A DNA stretch of 64,000 nucleotides from a virus. Below are positions 25,572 to 53,409 of this stretch, piece after piece. The notes under the pieces are model-generated. The model was not told the origin of the DNA. It was given only the letters and a program-made list of their open reading frames with translations, and made no database searches. The stretch lies in IMG/VR virus record IMGVR_UViG_3300045988_159816. One strand, written 5' to 3'. The translations under genes were made by a program, and so were the position numbers. Every line of letters starts with the position of its first letter. Positions within the stretch are counted from its first letter, which is position 1.

Positions 25572-26490
25572 AATTTATAATCGAACTGGGTTATATAGGA
25601 CAAGAATTGGTCGTTATTTTCCAAAATATTATGAAGGTATTTTGGAAACAGATGAACTAATTAAAGTTGAAAATGATATTTGGAATAACATTTATAATTT
25701 GATTGTAAAAGCTAAAAGAAATCAATTTATTGCTTATGCAGATGAAGATGGAATTTATGCTTATGAACAATTATTCCAAATAGTTTCAGATCCCACTACT
25801 GAAACATTAGAAGAAAGAAGATTTAGACTACTTAATAGAGTACAAACATTGTCTTATTATACAATGAATTTTCTTCGCGAAAAATTAGATAATTTATTTG
25901 GCGTGGATAATTATGAAATCCAAATGGATTATCCAAATAGAACATTATATGTCAAGAGTAATTTTTCAAATTATTTTGTTTACAATGAAACGATTGCATT
26001 AATTCACAAAATAAGACCAGCCAATATGGTTTTTGTTAATGTACCTTTAATTCCGTCAACAGTTGAAGTTGGAGAAGAAATCTATCAACAAAAATGGTGG
26101 TGGAATTATATTTTAGGTGGTAAATGGAAAGTCGGTGAAAAACCGATTATTAGTGTACAGGAATTGGCTAAATTAAAATCAGAGGAGGTACAATCCTTGA
26201 CGCCTTTAATGCTTAATAAATTAAAAGAATTTACAGCAGAAACAATTCAAGCTGTGCTAATCAATGATACCTATAAGGTAACAACATTCGTTCAAAAAAT
26301 TATTACTGGTGGGTATTTAAGAATCCAGTATAATATTGAAAATTGGGAACAAATAAAATTAATTACTAATATTAAATTTTTAGACGCTGAAGGATTTATT
26401 TTATCAAATAATGCTGTGTATATTCCAGTGGCTTCAGATACAATGATTGAACACAGAATTAATATTCGGGAGGTTACTTCAAATGGCTAA
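25561..26490 (+). CDS. tail protein (XkdU-position)
   Basis: Position. Confidence 0.4.
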   Translation: MNNKIYNRTGLYRTRIGRYFPKYYEGILETDELIKVENDIWNNIYNLIVKAKRNQFIAYADEDGIYAYEQLFQIVSDPTTETLEERRFRLLNRVQTLSYYTMNFLREKLDNLFGVDNYEIQMDYPNRTLYVKSNFSNYFVYNETIALIHKIRPANMVFVNVPLIPSTVEVGEEIYQQKWWWNYILGGKWKVGEKPIISVQELAKLKSEEVQSLTPLMLNKLKEFTAETIQAVLINDTYKVTTFVQKIITGGYLRIQYNIENWEQIKLITNIKFLDAEGFILSNNAVYIPVASDTMIEHRINIREVTSNG

Positions 26491-27391
26491 TATTATAATG
26501 CAAATTACTGATTACATTGCTCATTTATGGCATAACACATCTGATGATATTGTAATGGCTGAAAATATTAATGGTTGGGAAGATACATTACAACAACATT
26601 CACAATTCTTAAAAAGATTTTCTTGGCAACCGAATACTACTTATCTAAAAAATTCAGTATTACTTTATCCATTCGGATTACATACTAAATTAGTATCTAA
26701 AAACGCTGGTACAAGTGGCAGCGTTGAGCCTACATGGTCAGAGGCTACAGGGGTAGAAGGTTCAAGAACAATTCAGGATAATGATATTGTTTGGGAAGAA
26801 CAACCTATTCAAATATCTTCAGATACTACACCAGTGGGAACCATTAAACAGCAGCTCTGGAACTCAGCACCTCCTGGATATTTAAAACTTGATAAAAGTG
26901 TAATTCTAAATAGATCCGAATATCCGGAATTGTGGGATTTTGTTCAAAAATATATGCCTTTAACTACAGAGGTTGAATGGCAAAAGATGTTGACTCAAAA
27001 TGGGACTTCCGTTGGTTTCTTTTCACAAGGCGACGGCTCTACTACTTTTAGAACACCAATTATGATAGATTTTGGTCGTGGTGGCTCCTCTGCTGGTGCT
27101 TTCTTTAAAGACCAAAATAAACTCCATAACCATACGGCTAATATTGATACTACCCCCGCACAGGGTAGCTTCAGGTTGTGGAAATTTGATCCTGCCGCTA
27201 CTGGTGTATTCTCATCAAGTTATTTAGGAAGATGGGCAAACAGTAAAAACGGCGGTGATGATGCAATGTATCAAATTAATTTTAATCTTGCAAATGCTTT
27301 AAATAACATTACAATCGCTTCTTCGGGAGGATCTGAAGGGTATCCGAAACACGTTACAATGCCATTTTACTTGAGAACTTTAAATATTTAA
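26483..27391 (+). CDS. tail fiber protein with a tail-collar domain, and a C-terminus encoded in an invertible segment
   Basis: Collar motif FFSQGDGSTTFRTP. The last 86 codons lie between perfect inverted repeats. Confidence 0.7.
   Translation: MANIIMQITDYIAHLWHNTSDDIVMAENINGWEDTLQQHSQFLKRFSWQPNTTYLKNSVLLYPFGLHTKLVSKNAGTSGSVEPTWSEATGVEGSRTIQDNDIVWEEQPIQISSDTTPVGTIKQQLWNSAPPGYLKLDKSVILNRSEYPELWDFVQKYMPLTTEVEWQKMLTQNGTSVGFFSQGDGSTTFRTPIMIDFGRGGSSAGAFFKDQNKLHNHTANIDTTPAQGSFRLWKFDPAATGVFSSSYLGRWANSKNGGDDAMYQINFNLANALNNITIASSGGSEGYPKHVTMPFYLRTLNI
27099..27132. repeat. left inverted repeat (34 bp) inside the tail fiber gene
   Basis: ctttctttaaagaccaaaataaactccataacca. Its exact reverse complement lies at 27642-27675. 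Confidence 0.85.
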
Positions 27392-28869: not shown

Positions 28870-29413
28870 AATTAGTCAAGTTATTTCTGGATTATCCCTA
28901 ATCAAATTTATTAATTCTGTTATAGATGGCATAAACGCTCATTTATCTGATTATAATAATCCTCATAAAGTAACAGCGGCTCAATTAGGTTTATCTAATG
29001 CGTATAAATATAAGGGTAGTGTTGAAACTTATGAGGATTTACCAACATCAGCTGAAAGTGGTGATGTTTATAATGTTGTTAAAGGTGATAAAGAACAAGG
29101 TATTGCAGATGGAGCAAATTTTGCTTGGGACGGTACTAAATGGGATAATTTAGGCGGGTTATTAACTGGTACAGGTGCAATTAGGGTTGAATTTGTGGCT
29201 GCAAGTTGGCAAATTAATTCTTCCACTAATTTATATGAACTTCCATTAAATCTTTTTGAACAAGTGGAAAGTGTTGGTGTTTTAAGTGTTGAGGCTGTTG
29301 AAAATAATGAAAGACATAGCGTTTTAATCGACACTATTGGGAATAAAGTAGTTGCTTTAAATGCTTTTGATGGTGCTATTTATTATACAACTTTTCGGGA
29401 GGTAACACAATGA
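28859..29413 (+). CDS. hypothetical tail fiber-associated protein
   Basis: ORF between two fiber genes. Confidence 0.5.
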   Translation: MLNKISQVISGLSLIKFINSVIDGINAHLSDYNNPHKVTAAQLGLSNAYKYKGSVETYEDLPTSAESGDVYNVVKGDKEQGIADGANFAWDGTKWDNLGGLLTGTGAIRVEFVAASWQINSSTNLYELPLNLFEQVESVGVLSVEAVENNERHSVLIDTIGNKVVALNAFDGAIYYTTFREVTQ

Positions 29414-31245
29414 AAAAAATTTCTCGCCAGCAAGATGTAACAGTAGCTAATGTTTTAAGATGTTTAAATGAATTAAATGATGAAAATATGGTTTATGTCG
29501 GAACAGAACCTCCGGAAGAAGTTAAAAAAGGATTAATATGGGTAAATCCAGAAGAAATAACAGAAGAACCTGAAAAAATTTATGTTGGTCATATGGTTGG
29601 GGATATCTATCCTGTTAGTTATACCGAATTAGAATCGGGTCAATTAGTATTAAAAGGTCAGTTAGTTAGTCGTGAAATTTATGGTGTATTATGGGCATGG
29701 TTGCAAAAACACCCTAGTTTACTAATAACAGAACAAGAATATACCGAATATTTAAATTCCTCAGAAAATTTATGTTGTCCTTATTTTAGCACAGGAACAA
29801 CAGAAAATAATTTCAGATTACCTAATTATAATGGCGTATTCTTTAAAGCAACTAATGATACTTCTAAAATTAACGAATTTGAAACTGATAAACAGAGAAA
29901 TATAACTGGTAGCTATGTTCAACTAGCTACCAGTTGGGATGATGGTGGAAGAGGTGTAATATCATTTTCAATGTCAGGAGCTTATTCTTCTACAGATGGT
30001 GGTACAACTAATGACAGTATACATCAGGATCCCAGTGATAGGACAGGTATAACAATAGATTTCGACGCCTCTCGTTCCGTCGGAACTGAGCACACTGGCA
30101 GCGAAGTTAAACCTAAAAGTCTTAATCAGGTATGGGTAGTTCAAGCTTTCGGAGTAATCACTAATGCAAGTTCCCTTGATATCTCTGTTTTAGAACAACA
30201 AATACAACAAATTACAGATTATAGCAATTATGAAGTTTCGTGTATTAAGAATAATCCAGTTTATTACAATAGAGATCAATTATTTTATTCTAATAAAACA
30301 AATATCACAATTCCAAAAAATCTAAAAATAAACATTGATGGAGAATGTTATATAAGTACCATTAATAAAGTTCTTCAATTATCCACTGTAGACACTCCTC
30401 AAAATTTAGCCGGGAAAGATGTTTACATTTATGCTTGTAAACCTCAAGATATTTCTTCTACAGAGCCAATTTTCATTTTGTCTTTAAATAGTACAGTGCC
30501 CACAGGTTATACTGCAAGTTCTAGCCGTAAAATAGGTGGATTTCATTGTTTATGTGCAGATGTTGGTACAATAGATGGACATACTTTATCCGGATATGTT
30601 ACTGGAGATATTTTACCCGCATCAATTTGGGATTTACTACACAGACCTAAAGGAGATTCAGAAGGACTTGCTTATGATGAAGTTTCTGAATGTTGGTTAA
30701 GTATTTATCAATTAAGTTGGGACGGCACTAAATTAGTCAGTGTTTATAATGGAGTTATTGCAGATGGTACTTCAACTAAAAAATGGCATGGTGAAGCTTT
30801 TATTGAACAATTAATGAATCAAAAAATGCGATTACCTTGGCGACATGAATTTCAGATGGCGGCAAAAGGAAGTAATGAAGGAACATCAATTAAGAATGCA
30901 GCAGATCCTAATACTACAGGTGGTCATGTAGATAGTAACAATAGAAGAATGATTAGTAATATTGGATTAGAAGATTGTTGTGGCTGTTCTTGGCAATGGG
31001 CTATGGATTTAGGCTTTGCAGGGGGATCAGGATGGAATGATTCTGTTTATAATTCCAATGTTGATTCTCAAAGATATGGTCAGTCTTATGGTACTTTATA
31101 TCGTTTGCTCCTGGGCGCTTGCTGGTATAGCGGTTCGTATTGCGGTTCTCGTTCTGTCGCTTGTCATTCTGGCTCGTCTAGTGTCATTTCCGCTTACTCT
31201 GCGCGCGGTGCGTCGGAGCCGAGGGTTGTCACGAATTTAAACTAA
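29410..31245 (+). CDS. tail fiber and receptor-binding protein, the DGR target
   Basis: N-terminal tail-collar motif (YPVSYTELESGQLVLKGQLVSREIYGVLW). The C-terminal 38 codons form the variable repeat, a Cys/Ser/Tyr-rich lectin-like tail. Confidence 0.8.
   Translation: MKKISRQQDVTVANVLRCLNELNDENMVYVGTEPPEEVKKGLIWVNPEEITEEPEKIYVGHMVGDIYPVSYTELESGQLVLKGQLVSREIYGVLWAWLQKHPSLLITEQEYTEYLNSSENLCCPYFSTGTTENNFRLPNYNGVFFKATNDTSKINEFETDKQRNITGSYVQLATSWDDGGRGVISFSMSGAYSSTDGGTTNDSIHQDPSDRTGITIDFDASRSVGTEHTGSEVKPKSLNQVWVVQAFGVITNASSLDISVLEQQIQQITDYSNYEVSCIKNNPVYYNRDQLFYSNKTNITIPKNLKINIDGECYISTINKVLQLSTVDTPQNLAGKDVYIYACKPQDISSTEPIFILSLNSTVPTGYTASSSRKIGGFHCLCADVGTIDGHTLSGYVTGDILPASIWDLLHRPKGDSEGLAYDEVSECWLSIYQLSWDGTKLVSVYNGVIADGTSTKKWHGEAFIEQLMNQKMRLPWRHEFQMAAKGSNEGTSIKNAADPNTTGGHVDSNNRRMISNIGLEDCCGCSWQWAMDLGFAGGSGWNDSVYNSNVDSQRYGQSYGTLYRLLLGACWYSGSYCGSRSVACHSGSSSVISAYSARGASEPRVVTNLN
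31103..31217 (+). repeat. DGR variable repeat
   Basis: 115 bp matching the template repeat except at 20 positions, all of which are A in the template. Confidence 0.9.
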
Positions 31246-31278
31246 TGACCGAGGGAACTATTTTACGAGGAAAACGGT

Positions 31279-31300
31279 GGCTAGTATGAAATACTAGCCA
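31279..31300 (+). promoter_or_regulatory. hairpin downstream of the variable repeat (candidate DGR homing element)
   Basis: ggctagtat-GAAA-atactagcc, a 9-bp stem with a 4-nt loop, about 35 nt after the stop. Confidence 0.5.
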
Positions 31301-31368
31301 AAGCTAACTTTTTAGTGTATAATATTAATTAGGTTAATGTATTTTTCAGTAGCTGGCGGTTTTTTCGG

Positions 31369-31483
31369 GTTTGCTCATGGGCGCTAACTGGAATAACAGT
31401 TCGAATTGCAGTTCTCGTTCTGTCAATTGTAATAATGGCTCGTCTAATGTCAATTCCAATTACTCTGCACGCAGTACGTCGGA
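31369..31483 (+). repeat. DGR template repeat
   Basis: Intergenic copy of the variable repeat, rich in AAC and AAT codons in the corresponding frame. Confidence 0.9.
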
Positions 31484-31593
31484 TACGGGGAAAATTAGCA
31501 GGTGCGGCTAACCCTCGGCTGATACATTGACCTTGCTGAAAAGCAAAATACGAAAAAGGGTGAAGCAGTGGTTAGTAGTTAATTCGAACGTCA

Positions 31594-32640
31594 TTGCTTC
31601 AATTTTTAATAATGAAAAGACATAATAATTTATTTGACAAAATTGTAGACAAGGATAATCTTTTGTTAGCGTATAAAAAAGCTAAAAAACATAAAAGCTG
31701 GCAACAAAAAGTTATTCGTGTTGAAAAAGATTTGGATAATTTAATTGAAGAATTAAGATTAAGTCTAATTAATGGTACTTACAAAACAGCTGAATACAGA
31801 ACAAAGAAAATTTATGAACCAAAAGAAAGAACAATTTATGTACTTCCATTTTATCCAGATCGCATTGTTCATCACGCTATAATGAATATTTTAGAACCTA
31901 TATGGGATAACCTTTTTATTTCTGATAGTTATGCTTGTAGAAATGGTAAAGGTCAACATAAAGGAAGTCAAAAATGTATGGAATTTGTTCGCAAAAATAA
32001 GTATTGTTTAAAATGTGATATTAGTAAATTTTATCCATCTATAAATCATGAAATATTAAAATTAATTATTCGTAAGAAAATAAAATGTAAACGCACTTTA
32101 AATTTATTAGATACCATTATTGATAGTATTGATGGAGAAACAAATATTCCTATTGGTAATTATCTTAGTCAATGGTTTGGAAATTTATATTTAAACGAAT
32201 TAGATATGTTTATGAAACATGATAATAAAATTAAATGTTATATTCGTTATTGTGATGATTTTCTTTTATTTTCTAATGATAAAGCTTTATTAAAAGAAAT
32301 GGCTATTAAAATCAAAGATTATGTTGAAAATATTTTAAAATTAAGATTAAGTAAATGTAATTTATTCCCGACTTCTCAGGGAATAGATTTTTTAGGTTAT
32401 AGGCATTTTTCGTCTGGATATATTCTTGTTCGTAAAACTACAGCTAAAAGAATGAAGAAAAGAATCCGGAGATTAAAATGGGAATTGGCTAAAAAGAAAA
32501 TTACTAATGATAGAGCTTTATCTGTTATTGGAAGTATTTCGGGCTGGTTAAAATGGGCTAATACATATAACCTTCAAATATCCTTACAACTAAATGAATT
32601 AAAAGAATCTATAGGAGGTTCTGTTAATGAACAAATTTAG
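31594..32640 (+). CDS. DGR reverse transcriptase
   Basis: Motifs IGNYLSQ (the DGR-type IGxxxSQ) and RYCDDFLLF (YxDD). About 340 aa. The true start may be the ATG at 31612. Confidence 0.9.
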   Translation: MLQFLIMKRHNNLFDKIVDKDNLLLAYKKAKKHKSWQQKVIRVEKDLDNLIEELRLSLINGTYKTAEYRTKKIYEPKERTIYVLPFYPDRIVHHAIMNILEPIWDNLFISDSYACRNGKGQHKGSQKCMEFVRKNKYCLKCDISKFYPSINHEILKLIIRKKIKCKRTLNLLDTIIDSIDGETNIPIGNYLSQWFGNLYLNELDMFMKHDNKIKCYIRYCDDFLLFSNDKALLKEMAIKIKDYVENILKLRLSKCNLFPTSQGIDFLGYRHFSSGYILVRKTTAKRMKKRIRRLKWELAKKKITNDRALSVIGSISGWLKWANTYNLQISLQLNELKESIGGSVNEQI

Positions 32641-32908
32641 TGATTTTGCCGAAGAAAAATTTATCGGCGAAAAGATTAAAATATCAAAAGTGTTGAATAA
32701 AGAAATTAAAGTTTTAGCTTTTCAAGTTAAGAAAAGTAAAATTGAAAAAGATGGTTTTTATATTCAAATGCAAATAGAAGTAGACGATGAAAGAAAAGTC
32801 TTATTTACTAATTCAAGTGTATTAAAAGACCAACTTGAAAAGTATAAAGATAACCTTCCATTTATCACTACTATTATCCAACCAAAGAAATATTTTTCAT
32901 TTAGTTAG
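32627..32908 (+). CDS. hypothetical basic protein (possible DGR accessory protein)
   Basis: Lys-rich 93 aa directly after the reverse transcriptase. Function not shown. Confidence 0.45.
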   Translation: MNKFSDFAEEKFIGEKIKISKVLNKEIKVLAFQVKKSKIEKDGFYIQMQIEVDDERKVLFTNSSVLKDQLEKYKDNLPFITTIIQPKKYFSFS

Positions 32909-32918
32909 GAGGATTATT

Positions 32919-33218
32919 ATGTATGGCTATCCAAAAGCACTAAAAACAAAAGAAGATTATGAATATGTTCGTAATTATTTTCCAAAAGAACTTTGGAAAA
33001 AAGATTTTCAGGCTTTATTAGATACTCAATATGATTGGTTTTTTATTGATAAACTACTAAAAAATGAAGAGGTTGTTTTAAAGAAAAATCAAAGAATTGA
33101 GTATAATGAAGAATTAGATGAAAGATACTTATACGAATATAAGTATAATCCTAATTGTAAATTAGCTACTATTGGTTATTCAGAAGAAGAAGTACAATCA
33201 ATTTTACAGGAGGATTAA
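32919..33218 (+). CDS. hypothetical protein
   Basis: ATG after AGGAGG. Trimmed from the track ORF starting at 32835. Confidence 0.5.
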   Translation: MYGYPKALKTKEDYEYVRNYFPKELWKKDFQALLDTQYDWFFIDKLLKNEEVVLKKNQRIEYNEELDERYLYEYKYNPNCKLATIGYSEEEVQSILQED

Positions 33219-33220
33219 TC

Positions 33221-34825
33221 ATGGCAGATGTAAAAATTTATGACGGCGAAAAATTTGTAAACTTTAACATATCAAATGGTATTGAATTACCTGTAGGATT
33301 TGAATACTATGTACCTTATTCAGAATTAGATAGTGGTCAATTAATTCGTGATGGACAAATTGTAAGTCGTAGTGTTTATAAAGATTTATGGGATTTTGTT
33401 CAAAAGCATCCGTCTTTATTATTGACCGAGGAACAATGGCAAGCTGAATTATCTGCTAATGAAGGAATAGTAAATAATTATTATTCTTCGGGTGATGGTT
33501 CAACTACTTTTAGATTACCTAAAGCTGGAGTTATTGAATTACCTGTTATCACAGCTGAAGGACTTAATAAATTTAGTACGGATAGTTTTAAATCTCATAA
33601 TCACGAAAATATAACAGAGCCTATTAGTGGAAAAATATTAAATCCTATATATTGGAATACTACTGATAATGGTGCAATATTAAATAACGCAAATATTAAA
33701 TCTCAAAACTCTGGCTCTCTTACTCCTTATTTTGCGCCACTATCAGGAACTAATATAACTAATGTTGGAGGAACAGAAACTAAACCTAAAACAATAACTA
33801 AATTAGCTGTAGTTCAAGCCTTTGGTAGAGTTATAAATACAGGTACTTTAGATATTAATGATTTGGTAAACGATGTAAATAACTTAATTCAATCTAATCA
33901 TATTAAAACCTATACAGATTTAACTCAAATTGGCTTAACTAATGGAATTGAGCAATTCCAGGATATTGGTAAAAACTTGCCTGAAAATTCTCAAATAACT
34001 TATCGAGTTTGGGAGAAAGATAATCATAATCACGTCCTTTATCCTAGTATAAGTGGAATATTCACAATGGAAAAAGCAATAACATTTTGCAGATGTTTTT
34101 ATAATAGTATAACACCTAATAAACAATGGCAAATGGCTTTTGATTATCGTGATGAATTTTACATTGAACCAACTTGGGAATTATTAGCAAAAAATAATAA
34201 ATTGAGTATGCCTTCTAATAACAAGATAATTATTAATTTAAAAAATCAGGGAGATTCCTGGACAGCTCCCTGTGATGGTTATATATGGGGAATGAAAATT
34301 GGGGGTAGTGATGTTGTAAACAGTTGGTTAAATGTTTGGGACTCTACTGATGCAGATACAAGTAATTATGGCACTTTGATTTATTGTGATTATGGTCAAC
34401 CATATATTAATTTATGCGGTAATTTAGCTGTACGAAAAGGGCAAACTGTTTATTTTAACTGGAATAATAATTGTAGAGTATATTTTTATCCAGCTTTAAA
34501 TAATAATATGCCTGTTTATGGTGAGGATGTAAGAATTTACATCAAAGCTATTAATATAAATGGTTATCCAGTTAAGGGAGCTAATGTTGAGATAACAATA
34601 TCTTCTGGCCATACAGAAAATGGAAAAACTAATAATGATGGTAGATATTTACTATCCTACGCTGGTTATAAGAAGATAAAAAATGCAAATATAAGTTCAG
34701 GCGATATGCCTAAAGTGATGGATGTTAAAGTATCAAGCAACGAAGGAAGTGACGTACTCACACTTTATAATTTAGAAGAATTACAAGAAAATAAAATTTA
34801 TGATTTAGAAATACACATTGTATAA
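33221..34825 (+). CDS. tail fiber protein with a tail-collar domain
   Basis: The motifs YSELDSGQLIRDGQIVSRSVYKDLWDFV and GDGSTTFRLPK match the collar domain. Confidence 0.65.
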   Translation: MADVKIYDGEKFVNFNISNGIELPVGFEYYVPYSELDSGQLIRDGQIVSRSVYKDLWDFVQKHPSLLLTEEQWQAELSANEGIVNNYYSSGDGSTTFRLPKAGVIELPVITAEGLNKFSTDSFKSHNHENITEPISGKILNPIYWNTTDNGAILNNANIKSQNSGSLTPYFAPLSGTNITNVGGTETKPKTITKLAVVQAFGRVINTGTLDINDLVNDVNNLIQSNHIKTYTDLTQIGLTNGIEQFQDIGKNLPENSQITYRVWEKDNHNHVLYPSISGIFTMEKAITFCRCFYNSITPNKQWQMAFDYRDEFYIEPTWELLAKNNKLSMPSNNKIIINLKNQGDSWTAPCDGYIWGMKIGGSDVVNSWLNVWDSTDADTSNYGTLIYCDYGQPYINLCGNLAVRKGQTVYFNWNNNCRVYFYPALNNNMPVYGEDVRIYIKAININGYPVKGANVEITISSGHTENGKTNNDGRYLLSYAGYKKIKNANISSGDMPKVMDVKVSSNEGSDVLTLYNLEELQENKIYDLEIHIV

Positions 34826-50649: not shown

Positions 50650-51573
50650 ATGTTTGATTTATACTTCGCAGGTCAAGTAACAGACCATGTTGACAAATGT
50701 TTATTTGACATGGGAGCTAACCATCTATTTTCTTTTTTAAATGAAAGAAAAAATATTGATAGATGGATCAGGTGGGTCGATACCTATGGCAAAAGGGGAA
50801 AGTTATTTATTGATAGTGGTGCTTTTACAGCGTGGACTAAAGGTACTTATATCAACGTAGATGACTATATTTATTTCTTAAATGATAGGGTACAGTATAT
50901 TGACCTTTTTGGGCAGTTGGATTGTATTCCCGGAAACATCAGAAATAAACCAACACAGGCACAAGTAAATGATGCGGCTGTTAAAACTTGGAAAAACTTC
51001 ATTTATATGAGGGAGAGAGTGCTTAACAAAAAAGGTTTATTATTTACTTTTCATGTAGGTGAGCCTATATGGTGTCTGCGTAGAGCCTTAGAGTGGAAAG
51101 ACGAAAATGGGTTGCCATTGGACTATATTGCCCTCGGTGGTATGGTTGGTAAGCCTAAAGACGTACAAAAGAATTTTTTAGATTTATGTTTTGACATTAT
51201 TAAAAGTTCTAGTAATCCGAATGTCAAGGTTCATGCTTTTGGAATGACAGTAAGAAAGATATTACAGTCATTTCCAGTATTTTCAGCAGATAGTTCTTCA
51301 TGGATTCAAAGTGGTCACAATGGAGCTATTTATACTCCTTGGGGTACAGTTATTATTAGTGCTCAGCAAAAGGATAAAATAGTTCATCCTTTAAATGGTA
51401 GTGCGGTTGCTTTAGAAGACTTGAAAAATTATATTTCCAGTAAGAAGTTCGATTTTGAACAGCTTATGGAAGATTATGTTCAGCGTGATCTATGGAATGT
51501 TACATTCTTAATGGATTGGGCAAAAGATTATACCTATCATGGTGGAAAACTTATCAGGAGGCGATTATTTTGA
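50650..51573 (+). CDS. dpdA: DpdA-like DNA-guanine transglycosylase (TGT paralog)
   Basis: FIDSGAF resembles the TGT DSGGFQ motif. Adjacent to queC, queD, queE and folE. Confidence 0.55.
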   Translation: MFDLYFAGQVTDHVDKCLFDMGANHLFSFLNERKNIDRWIRWVDTYGKRGKLFIDSGAFTAWTKGTYINVDDYIYFLNDRVQYIDLFGQLDCIPGNIRNKPTQAQVNDAAVKTWKNFIYMRERVLNKKGLLFTFHVGEPIWCLRRALEWKDENGLPLDYIALGGMVGKPKDVQKNFLDLCFDIIKSSSNPNVKVHAFGMTVRKILQSFPVFSADSSSWIQSGHNGAIYTPWGTVIISAQQKDKIVHPLNGSAVALEDLKNYISSKKFDFEQLMEDYVQRDLWNVTFLMDWAKDYTYHGGKLIRRRLF

Positions 51574-52254: not shown

Positions 52255-52443
52255 ATGAACTGTTTAAAAGGTGAAATTATCAAAGAAATGGAAGCTAAAG
52301 CTAAAAGGGCTATTGACCAAAAAGAATATACAATGGGCAATGTTTTAGTCAATGCAGAACAGTTATTAAGCCTTATTTATGAAGTTAAAGTAAAAAGATA
52401 TCATAATCATATTAAACCAGGAGGAAAGAAATGTACACAGTAA
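52255..52443 (+). CDS. hypothetical small protein
   Basis: ORF. Confidence 0.4.
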   Translation: MNCLKGEIIKEMEAKAKRAIDQKEYTMGNVLVNAEQLLSLIYEVKVKRYHNHIKPGGKKCTQ

Positions 52444-52766
52444 TTAAAGATTTAGAAATTTCAGCTTGCCACAGATTAAATTTGAATTATGCAAGTAAAT
52501 GTACTCAAAGGCATGGTCACAACTGGCATATCAGAGTGATATGCGAAAGTAATGAATTAAACGAAAATGGTATGGTGGTTGATTTTACTCATATTAAACA
52601 ATTTATTTCAGATATGTTTGATCATCAAGATTTAAACGAAAAAATGGACGTAAATCCTACAGCAGAAAATATTGCAAAAATGATTTGTGATAATGTTGCA
52701 AATTGTGTTAGGGTAGAAGTTCAAGAAAGTGATGGTAATTTAGCTATTTATGACAAAACAAGATAA
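52431..52766 (+). CDS. queD: 6-carboxy-5,6,7,8-tetrahydropterin synthase
   Basis: CxxxHGH motif (CTQRHGHNWH). Confidence 0.8.
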   Translation: MYTVIKDLEISACHRLNLNYASKCTQRHGHNWHIRVICESNELNENGMVVDFTHIKQFISDMFDHQDLNEKMDVNPTAENIAKMICDNVANCVRVEVQESDGNLAIYDKTR

Positions 52767-53409
52767 AGTTTATAGTGTAAACGAAATATTTACAAGTATT
52801 GAAGGAGAAGGTATTCGTACTGGATTTCTTTCAACATTTGTCAGATTTAATGGTTGTAATTTAGCTTGCGGTTACTGCGATACAAAATATGCACAAGAAC
52901 CTCAAGAACCTAATATGTCATTGCATGATATTTTAGAAGCCGTTAGTCAATCGGGATGTGGTAGAGTTACCCTCACAGGCGGAGAACCTTTATTTAGAGG
53001 TTATATGCAGGAGTTAATTCAAGAATTATCATGGCTTAGTTATCATGTTAATATTGAAACTAATGGGTCAATCATTCTTCCAGATTGTGTAACATTACCC
53101 GGAGTTTTTGTCACAATGGATTGGAAATGTCCGAGTAGTGGTCAAAATGGTAGTATGAAATCAGAAAATTTAAAAAAATTAACTTTAGTAGATGTATTGA
53201 AATTTGTTGTTGCTACGGAAGAAGATTTAGCTGAATTTAAACGTATTTATGAACAAAATTTAGTTTGTACTTATGTGTTAAGCCCAGTATTCGGAGCAAT
53301 TGAGCCAAAAGCATTAGTTGAATTTATTAAAGAAAATAAAATGAATAATGCAATGGTACAAGTACAACTTCATAAAATTATTTGGGATCCGAATGAAAGA
53401 GGTGTCTAA
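52750..53409 (+). CDS. queE: 7-carboxy-7-deazaguanine synthase (radical SAM)
   Basis: CNLACGYC cluster. Confidence 0.85.
   Translation: MTKQDKVYSVNEIFTSIEGEGIRTGFLSTFVRFNGCNLACGYCDTKYAQEPQEPNMSLHDILEAVSQSGCGRVTLTGGEPLFRGYMQELIQELSWLSYHVNIETNGSIILPDCVTLPGVFVTMDWKCPSSGQNGSMKSENLKKLTLVDVLKFVVATEEDLAEFKRIYEQNLVCTYVLSPVFGAIEPKALVEFIKENKMNNAMVQVQLHKIIWDPNERGV

Follow-up and report, generated by a model that had tools for sequence, protein, structure and literature searches.

How does a diversity-generating retroelement (DGR) work when the accessory protein Avd is missing? The question is raised by a locus found in 64,000 nucleotides of viral DNA, the IMG/VR record IMGVR_UViG_3300045988_159816. This whole stretch is called the window here, and positions are counted from its first letter. 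On the plus strand, between positions 29410 and 33218, the window carries a tail-fibre gene ending in a variable repeat (VR), a template repeat (TR), a reverse transcriptase (RT) gene and two small open reading frames (ORFs), the first of which encodes a protein with a predicted oligonucleotide/oligosaccharide-binding (OB) fold. As a DGR, the element is of a known kind, and illustrates phage tropism switching cleanly, if in no unusual way. To our knowledge DGRs are the sole natural machines for targeted protein hypermutation, and all the mechanistic knowledge that we are aware of comes from the Avd-dependent Bordetella element. DGRs are being engineered for directed evolution. The locus very probably represents a functional DGR of the Mtd type, residing in a large contractile-tailed phage, and the OB protein is proposed to act in the place of Avd.

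The gene avd is present in about 74 % of DGRs, and is not universal. In the survey of Wu et al. 2018 (PMC5758913), 29 % of DGRs are devoid of accessory genes ('Architecture A'), and avd is lacking in the RT 'Lineage 3', of which Lineage 3A occurs only in Bacteroides and its relatives. According to the same survey an Avd-independent mechanism must exist, and the working of Avd-less DGRs was flagged as open.

Repeats, target gene and reverse transcriptase

With an offset of 266, VR (31103–31217, plus strand) and TR (31369–31483, plus strand) align without gaps over 115 nt, and 20 positions are mismatched. All 20 mismatches correspond to adenines of the TR, which contains 28 adenines in 115 nt (hypergeometric P = 2.7e-16). 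A preliminary description of the locus, made from the letters alone, had reported gapless repeats of about 115 bp with 20 differences, all at template adenines; the computed alignment agrees in full, and mismatches off template adenines, named there as an argument against a DGR, are absent (0/20). The VR spans codons 565–603 of the 611-codon target gene. The TR is non-coding and is followed by a conserved TAC (31484–31486). Its adenines are distributed among codon positions 1, 2 and 3 of the target frame as 15/12/1; AAY codons are 12, in line with the runs of Asn codons previously noticed, and no A-to-N change in the TR can produce a stop codon. This codon make-up is the classic design of a DGR template. 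The TR matches one site only, as no second TR-like site or additional VR was found on either strand of the window, and the 151-nt gap between VR and TR holds no ORF. Read in the VR frame, the TR forms a pseudo-ORF that stops at a TAA (31509–31511) set at the same offset of 266 from the TAA of the target gene (31243–31245). The six codons preceding the TAA are unrelated in the two sequences, and the shared offset may date back to the duplication from which the TR arose, or be due to chance.

The target gene (29410–31245, plus strand) encodes a 611-aa tail-fibre or receptor-binding protein, as denoted by matches to the Pfam domain mtd_2nd (PF21916, 2.6e-22) and to the tail protein family phrog_11262 (4.5e-53), and by the phmmer alignment of residues 319–603 with residues 87–376 of Mtd (1yu0, 6.7e-18). 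The N-terminal half resembles tail-fibre/collar PHROGs, the C-terminal half is Mtd-like and ends in the variable region. Since homology to Mtd extends through the variable C-terminal domain, the assignment of the target as a tail fibre is borne out, and the VR is placed in a predicted C-type-lectin fold, tolerant of variation, at the 3' end of the gene. The annotated phage protein closest to the Mtd-like half comes from 'Caudoviricetes sp. vir525' (38 % identity, 5e-53), a phage with Methanosarcinales as recorded host, which is nearer to the target than Bordetella phages (30 %).

The RT gene (31612–32640, plus strand) encodes a 342-aa protein matching RVT_1 (1.1e-17) and phrog_1423 (3.4e-118). 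The best solved relative is the RT of the BPP-1 DGR (8ub7, 4.3e-52), aligned over residues 2–322 (321 residues); a group II intron RT (1.7e-22) and retron RTs (1e-22 or worse) follow. The catalytic residues D136/D215/D216 match D138/D215/D216 of the Bordetella enzyme (bRT). K26, R73, I75, I181, G182 and Q187 correspond to bRT K29, R74, I76, I181, G182 and Q187, which touch the template or the incoming nucleotide in the BPP-1 structure. The motifs IGNYLSQ (IGxxxSQ type) and YCDD were both found, and identification of the protein as a DGR-type RT is supported by profile matches, the solved relative and intact motifs. In contrast, the start codon formerly set at TTG 31594 had to be moved to ATG 31612, because the latter falls opposite residue 2–3 of the Bordetella RT, and all relatives have their start codons at the same place in the alignment. 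NCBIfam includes no DGR model, and none of its models names the target or the RT.

Four IMG/VR contigs (sister phages L001–L004) encode an RT 100 % identical to that of the window. In these phages the TR is the same save for two bases at the 5' end, and the five VRs, inclusive of that in the window, are all different. Variable columns are 25, and 23 are located at adenines of the respective TR. Changes among sister phages are confined to 31110–31196. The 3'-most A-to-G differences (31203, 31207, 31210) are the same in all five VRs, and probably belong to a fixed boundary of the IMH/IMH* type (IMH, initiation of mutagenic homing) rather than to ongoing diversification. The compact VR-TR-RT layout, with mismatches at adenines only, was found in ~17 further IMG/VR relatives, the distant ones featuring 47–81 % RT identity. 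Judged from differences between assembled sister genomes, the element is a genuine, apparently active DGR. Decayed versions mark two relatives. In L022 (5850–6010) a promoter-like TATAAT runs into the middle of the RT gene, and the TR and RT codons 1–194 are gone. In L025 (5850–6010) a VR-type IMH is joined to a TR-type TAC plus spacer, the product of a VR/TR recombination collapse, and a second deletion extends from RT codon ~98 to OB codon ~63.

The resemblance to the BPP-1 DGR (mtd-avd-TR-brt) is marked. In both, the target is an Mtd-type protein (PF21916) whose last ~40 codons hold the VR, the RTs are homologous and share catalytic and template-contacting residues, mismatches are restricted to adenines, AAY codons are used in the TR, and the VR ends in a GC-rich, IMH-like segment. 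The window differs from BPP-1 in the absence of avd, in the gene order (target-TR-RT-OB) and in the VR-TR gap, which measures only 151 nt. The target is also larger, as it carries a long N-terminal fibre part that is missing in the 381-aa Mtd.

A small OB-fold protein encoded beside the RT

At E <= 0.01 to 0.1, no protein predicted in the 64-kb window matched the Avd (PF05635) or HRDC families of Pfam. Conservation is low among Avd proteins, and a very divergent one may have escaped detection. The earlier statement that no Avd is encoded between the repeats holds, and is extended by Pfam to the whole window. Both small ORFs located past the RT had been indicated as candidate accessory genes of basic or unknown character. 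Neither matches Avd in Pfam; the product of the first (93 aa) is predicted to be beta-rich, that of the second (99 aa) is acidic.

The 93-aa ORF (32627–32908, plus strand) encodes the basic OB-fold protein, which may be an accessory factor of the DGR. The gene start overlaps the last 14 nt of the RT gene, and is served by its own GGAGG ribosome-binding site (32612–32627). The AlphaFold model (predicted local distance difference test, pLDDT, 82.9) consists of a beta-barrel and one helix, with a predicted five-stranded OB topology. Best structural matches are replicative single-stranded DNA-binding proteins (SSBs), and the best viral match is annotated as a reverse transcriptase; a Foldseek comparison of the model with the PDB gave nothing significant. 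The sequence has no match to SSB or other Pfam families, nor to NCBIfam. The isoelectric point (pI) is 9.25, and averages 8.6 +/- 0.8 in the family. Homologs were sorted into 722 clusters at 90 % identity by a profile search, and into 1,044 clusters at 50 % identity by an exhaustive search. Nearly all are stand-alone, unnamed proteins of ~100 aa that match no Pfam domain.

Of 25 IMG/VR relatives, ~20 keep the OB gene beside the RT gene, even where RT identity falls to 47 %, and the other neighbouring genes vary. Linkage was also counted in loci retrieved by the OB protein alone, the GTDB set including the 56 loci with enough upstream sequence. A DGR-type RT is present in 54 of the 56: it abuts or overlaps the OB gene in 48, lies ~370–390 nt away in five, and is downstream in one. 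TR/VR pairs with mismatches at adenines only were identified in 50 of these GTDB loci, usually as two VRs in two small target genes, and the hosts are almost all Bacteroidota. Among seven metagenomic contexts, six have an RVT_1 gene directly upstream and overlapping, amid unrelated neighbours (TerL, primase, Mu-like genes, methyltransferase); a TR-like segment is directly upstream in the seventh. RT and OB moieties are fused in proteins of 411–507 aa, which represent several independent 50 %-identity clusters, and of which three are full-length.

The arrangement is not fixed. In L021 (5382–5669) and L092 (3501–3815) the OB gene is upstream of TR and RT, the position held by avd in BPP-1. In L037 (1–760) an OB-family gene is preceded by a VR-like ORF end and an Asn-rich TR-like segment; this 4.6-kb contig has no RT gene between the TR-like segment and the OB gene, and none clearly elsewhere. 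Many distant OB-linked loci (L026–L033, L036, L038 and most of L039–L096) feature two adjacent small targets (~135–157 aa), each with its own VR matched to a single TR, in contrast to the single large tail-fibre gene of the window.

Members of the OB family resemble Avd (pI 9.5 +/- 0.7; PMC5758913) in being small, basic and encoded beside TR and RT, in L021 and L092 at the very position of avd. In contrast, Avd is a pentamer of four-helix bundles (PF05635), the OB protein a predicted five-stranded barrel with one helix, usually encoded downstream of the RT in an overlapping, sometimes fused gene. According to the model, the OB protein is not Avd, and has the same general character: small, basic, linked to the RT, and provided with a predicted nucleic-acid-binding fold. 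Linkage, fusions and predicted fold strongly recommend it as a candidate accessory factor, apparently undescribed, for DGRs that lack Avd. In open-access papers and bioRxiv, searches for a DGR cofactor of the OB or SSB type, or acting independently of Avd, gave nothing relevant; an OB-fold partner of DGRs appears undescribed in the papers and preprints covered, a comparison that does not extend to the tentative PAG1-4 genes of the main survey.

The locus shares the core target-TR-RT, and the lack of avd, HRDC, MSL or CH1, with the Avd-less DGRs of Wu et al. 2018, and OB-linked DGRs, in a parallel to Lineage 3A, come almost all from Bacteroidota. The locus differs from Architecture A of the same survey because a conserved small gene accompanies the RT, so that 'accessory-free' may be a misnomer for OB-bearing cassettes. 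DGRs of crAss-like gut phages (cr60_1, LMMB, cr7_1) are also close to that of the window: DNA identity is 65–75 % in parts of the RT genes, and targets are Mtd-like or tail-collar fibre proteins encoded directly upstream, as here. These DGRs have mostly been reported without Avd, and called incomplete. The crAss-like phages are podoviruses, whereas the phage in the window is a myovirus. A search of crAss-like DGRs with the HMM (hidden Markov model) of the OB family was negative, as were hhalign comparisons with the C-terminal extension of the LMMB RT and with a 93-aa neighbour in LMMB. In cr7_1, the gene overlapping the end of the DGR RT (L098, 3521–3886) features two in-frame stops under translation table 11, consistent with stop-codon recoding in cr7_1.

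The second small ORF (32919–33218, plus strand) encodes an acidic 99-aa protein (pI 4.77), and has its own GGAGG ribosome-binding site (32903–32919). In some relatives it comes after the OB gene; in L016 it is directly preceded by the RT gene. By tblastn, homologs were detected in L005–L007, L016–L019 and L023 (27–76 % identity), and none in distant DGRs. Only 6 close homologs are known in the protein database; the AF2 model is helical, and unusable at a pLDDT of 55.8. Of the two genes formerly put forward, the first is thus sustained as a candidate accessory gene by linkage, fusions and fold, and its product is indeed basic; the second is left undecided, and its product is acidic.

RNA structure, VR boundary and flanking genes

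The spacer between TR and RT (31484–31611, plus strand) is a structured part of the DGR RNA, as indicated by RNAalifold, single-sequence folds and sequence alignment. In 5' to 3' order it features a putative stem P1 (CGGGG, 31486–31490, paired with CCCTCG, 31512–31517), an invariant GGCTGA (31517–31522), the downstream strand of a duplex bracketing the TR (31521–31533), hairpin P2 (TTGCT-GAAA-AGCAA, 31533–31546) followed by AAAATAC, and P3, a 13-bp stem with loop TTAGTAG...CGAA (31562–31600), all on the plus strand. The upstream strand of the bracketing duplex, AGGTTAATGTATT (31331–31343, plus strand), is a 13-bp complement to 31521–31533. Duplexes of this type were found in 12 loci, the spacer segment just 5' of the small hairpin pairing with residues 4–45 nt upstream of the TR. 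The paired sequences are unrelated from one locus to another, and in an ungapped scan the upstream region of the same locus was the best partner in 11 of 12 (mean score 24.9, vs 14.2 +/- 2.5 across loci). Compensatory changes support 17 of the 19 pairs of the RNAalifold consensus fold of the spacer, P3 included. P2 and the adjacent A-run recur in 14 of 15 single-sequence folds, with covarying arms of 4–6 bp, often a GNRA loop, and then AAAAYAC. P1, which lies between TR and duplex ahead of GGCUGA, holds a variable insert.

In the BPP-1 ribonucleoprotein (RNP) the order is a TR:spacer primer duplex, the priming nucleotide, the 'cPRT Stop' duplex formed with upstream sequence, a short stem-loop, unpaired adenosines and an RT-binding stem-loop. 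The RNA of the window is similarly organized: the duplex joining the two sides of the TR is followed by a short stem-loop, adenosines and a further stem-loop, and the order matches element for element. By position, the priming nucleotide would be in or beside GGCUGA. Pairing of GGCUGA with the 3' end of the TR, seen in two single-sequence folds, is not claimed, as the TR end varies, GGCUGA is invariant, and covariation is absent. Rfam returned sub-threshold matches at 31514–31623 to RT-14 (31.8 bits, gathering score 48.1) and RT-17 (23 bits, gathering score 40.4), and none at gathering level either in the spacer or in 15 relatives. Comparative genomics uncovered RT-14 and RT-17 as motifs that precede RT genes. 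The RT start codon, located 11 nt 3' of the 3' arm of P3 (31595–31612), has no ribosome-binding site, which suggests that RT translation is low or controlled by structure.

At the 3' end of the VR, CTCTGCGCGCGGTGCGTCGGAGCCGAGG (31197–31224, plus strand) is 79 % GC in a genome of 32 % GC. VR/TR homology is interrupted at GGA-GCC in the VR, at GGA-TAC in the TR, and the GCC/TAC break point is kept in most relatives. The VR end is accordingly a candidate boundary of the IMH/IMH* type. Further downstream lies a perfect inverted repeat (31278–31300, no strand assigned), a candidate cruciform or target-recognition element, TGGCTAGTAT-GAA-ATACTAGCCA, whose loop measures 3 nt if 10 bp are paired and 5 nt if 9 bp are paired. 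It is located 33 nt past the target stop codon and 54–61 nt past the end of VR/TR homology. Four of the 10 pairs are GC, and a -35-like hexamer falls partly within the 3' arm. Close relatives keep the hairpin, L005 and L020 with a compensatory change in the stem. DGR hairpins characterized so far, present in a minority of DGRs, are GC-rich, measure 7–10 bp, feature a 4-nt GRNA loop, and are set 4–34 bp after the VR. The BPP-1 hairpin comes right after the VR, and its 8-bp stem is GC-rich and capped by a GAAA loop; loop sequence and size are critical, and changing GAAA to CTTT abolishes function. The homing hairpin previously suggested for the window therefore exists, and is conserved with compensatory change, but loop, stem composition and distance differ from the characterized element, and the GAAA tetraloop assigned to it cannot stand, a symmetric GAAA loop being impossible at 31278–31300. 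Loop residues 31288–31290 read GAA in the window; each of the four sister phages has TTC instead, with identical surroundings. The flip is typical of recombination across a hairpin or cruciform, and points to a recombinationally active palindrome. Reading of the hairpin as a plus-strand terminator was rejected, as a T-run is absent and terminator-like scores were obtained on the minus strand only. The site TAGCCA-17 nt-TATAAT (31295–31323, plus strand) is promoter-like by consensus match only (10/12), and motif and spacing are kept in L005; from here the TR RNA would start at ~31330.

Sheath, tube and baseplate genes found in the window qualify the phage as a large contractile-tailed myovirus; megablast revealed no close relative among GenBank phages. 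Three paralogous genes are fibre-like (26447–27391, 29410–31245, 33221–34825), and have an N-terminal or central segment in common, as denoted by matches to the same PHROG tail-fibre families and by the direct repeats D2, D4 and D10. In sister loci the target and the fibre gene following the DGR are 41 % identical. Only the middle gene bears a VR. Elsewhere, the segment 50650–53409 includes a 307-aa ORF with no Pfam match (50650–51573), which precedes genes for a QueD-like 6-pyruvoyl-tetrahydropterin synthase (52431–52766) and a QueE-like radical SAM protein (52750–53409). The latter two suggest DNA modification of the 7-deazaguanine type by the phage.

Proposed mechanism and alternatives

The transcription start, the priming site, the way of integration and the biochemical part played by the OB protein are inferred as follows. 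An RNA starting at ~31330 would carry the TR and its structured flanks, and would be folded around the RT, as in the BPP-1 RNP, by the upstream/spacer duplex, the small hairpin with its adenosines and the long stem-loop. The RT would prime itself near the invariant GGCUGA/UAC junction, copy the TR into cDNA, and misincorporate opposite adenines. At the 3' end of the Mtd-like gene the cDNA would then take the place of the VR, up to a 3' boundary set by the GC-rich IMH-like segment. Up to ~12 mainly Asn-templated codons of the receptor-binding surface would be randomized, and host range changed. The OB protein would serve as a nucleic-acid-binding cofactor, either holding the RNA/primer duplex on the RT, as Avd does, or binding single-stranded cDNA.

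Some data do not sit easily with an active, OB-assisted DGR. Two of the 25 variable VR columns in sister phages are single T-to-G changes located beside adenine sites, and activity is read from assembled sister genomes rather than from experiments or sequencing reads. The hairpin past the VR is atypical in its AT-rich stem, 3-nt loop, distance and flipped loop. Some of the RT-OB fusions could be frameshift artefacts of overlapping ORFs. No OB gene was detected beside some crAss-like phage DGR RTs that resemble the RT of the window in DNA sequence, and the OB protein is therefore not universal among Avd-less DGRs. That the repeats arose by ordinary duplication or gene conversion, and stand by chance near an unrelated RT of group II intron, retron or defence type, is effectively refuted: it could appeal to the sub-threshold group II intron, retron and Drt matches in NCBIfam, a database with no DGR model, but leaves unexplained mismatches confined to one base of one copy, an RT far closer to the DGR enzyme (4e-52) than to a group II intron RT (2e-22), the lack of intron or retron RNAs at Rfam gathering score, and the recurrence of the same arrangement in relatives.

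The element might instead be a fossil, still recognizable in its components and unable to home, for example because of the loss of Avd or the non-canonical hairpin. The 64 kb devoid of Avd, the departure of the hairpin from the functional BPP-1 type and the decayed relatives L022 and L025 would all fit. A fossil is nevertheless very unlikely, because the RT ORF is intact in all catalytic and template-contact residues, the TR is invariant and VRs differ at adenines among phages with 100 % identical RTs, and the flanking RNA helices are upheld by compensatory changes; the Avd-less lineage, moreover, retains A-only TR/VR pairs in dozens of genomes. A further alternative concerns the OB protein only, which could be a phage SSB or other housekeeping protein, or the product of a hitch-hiking gene, beside a DGR that runs on the RT alone as in Architecture A. 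Replicative SSBs are its best structural matches, the phage has a replisome of its own, yet Pfam detects no SSB elsewhere in the window, and some related DGR RTs lack such a neighbour. This is unlikely too, because association with the RT in 54 of 56 GTDB loci from different Bacteroidota genomes and in 6 of 7 metagenomic contexts, and the several independent RT-OB fusions, are hard to reconcile with an unrelated passenger; in size (93–101 aa) and in the lack of an SSB match in Pfam, the protein is also unlike replicative SSBs. A functional Mtd-type DGR with an associated OB protein is thus retained. Evenly balanced, in our judgement, is the stronger proposal that in a widespread DGR lineage, centred on phages and prophages of Bacteroidota but including this low-GC myovirus, the OB protein took over from the Avd pentamer as a cofactor indispensable to cis-primed cDNA synthesis or to the handling of single-stranded cDNA.

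For Avd-less DGRs the locus offers a testable answer, made up of a candidate OB cofactor family, a cassette of ~2 kb (TR RNA, RT, OB) and RNA helices supported by covariation. If the OB protein is indeed a cofactor, the working of DGRs classed as 'accessory-free' or 'incomplete' would be explained. If it substitutes for Avd, the RT-RNA core would be able to recruit structurally unrelated nucleic-acid chaperones, and a smaller engineering system, based on a monomeric cofactor, might follow.

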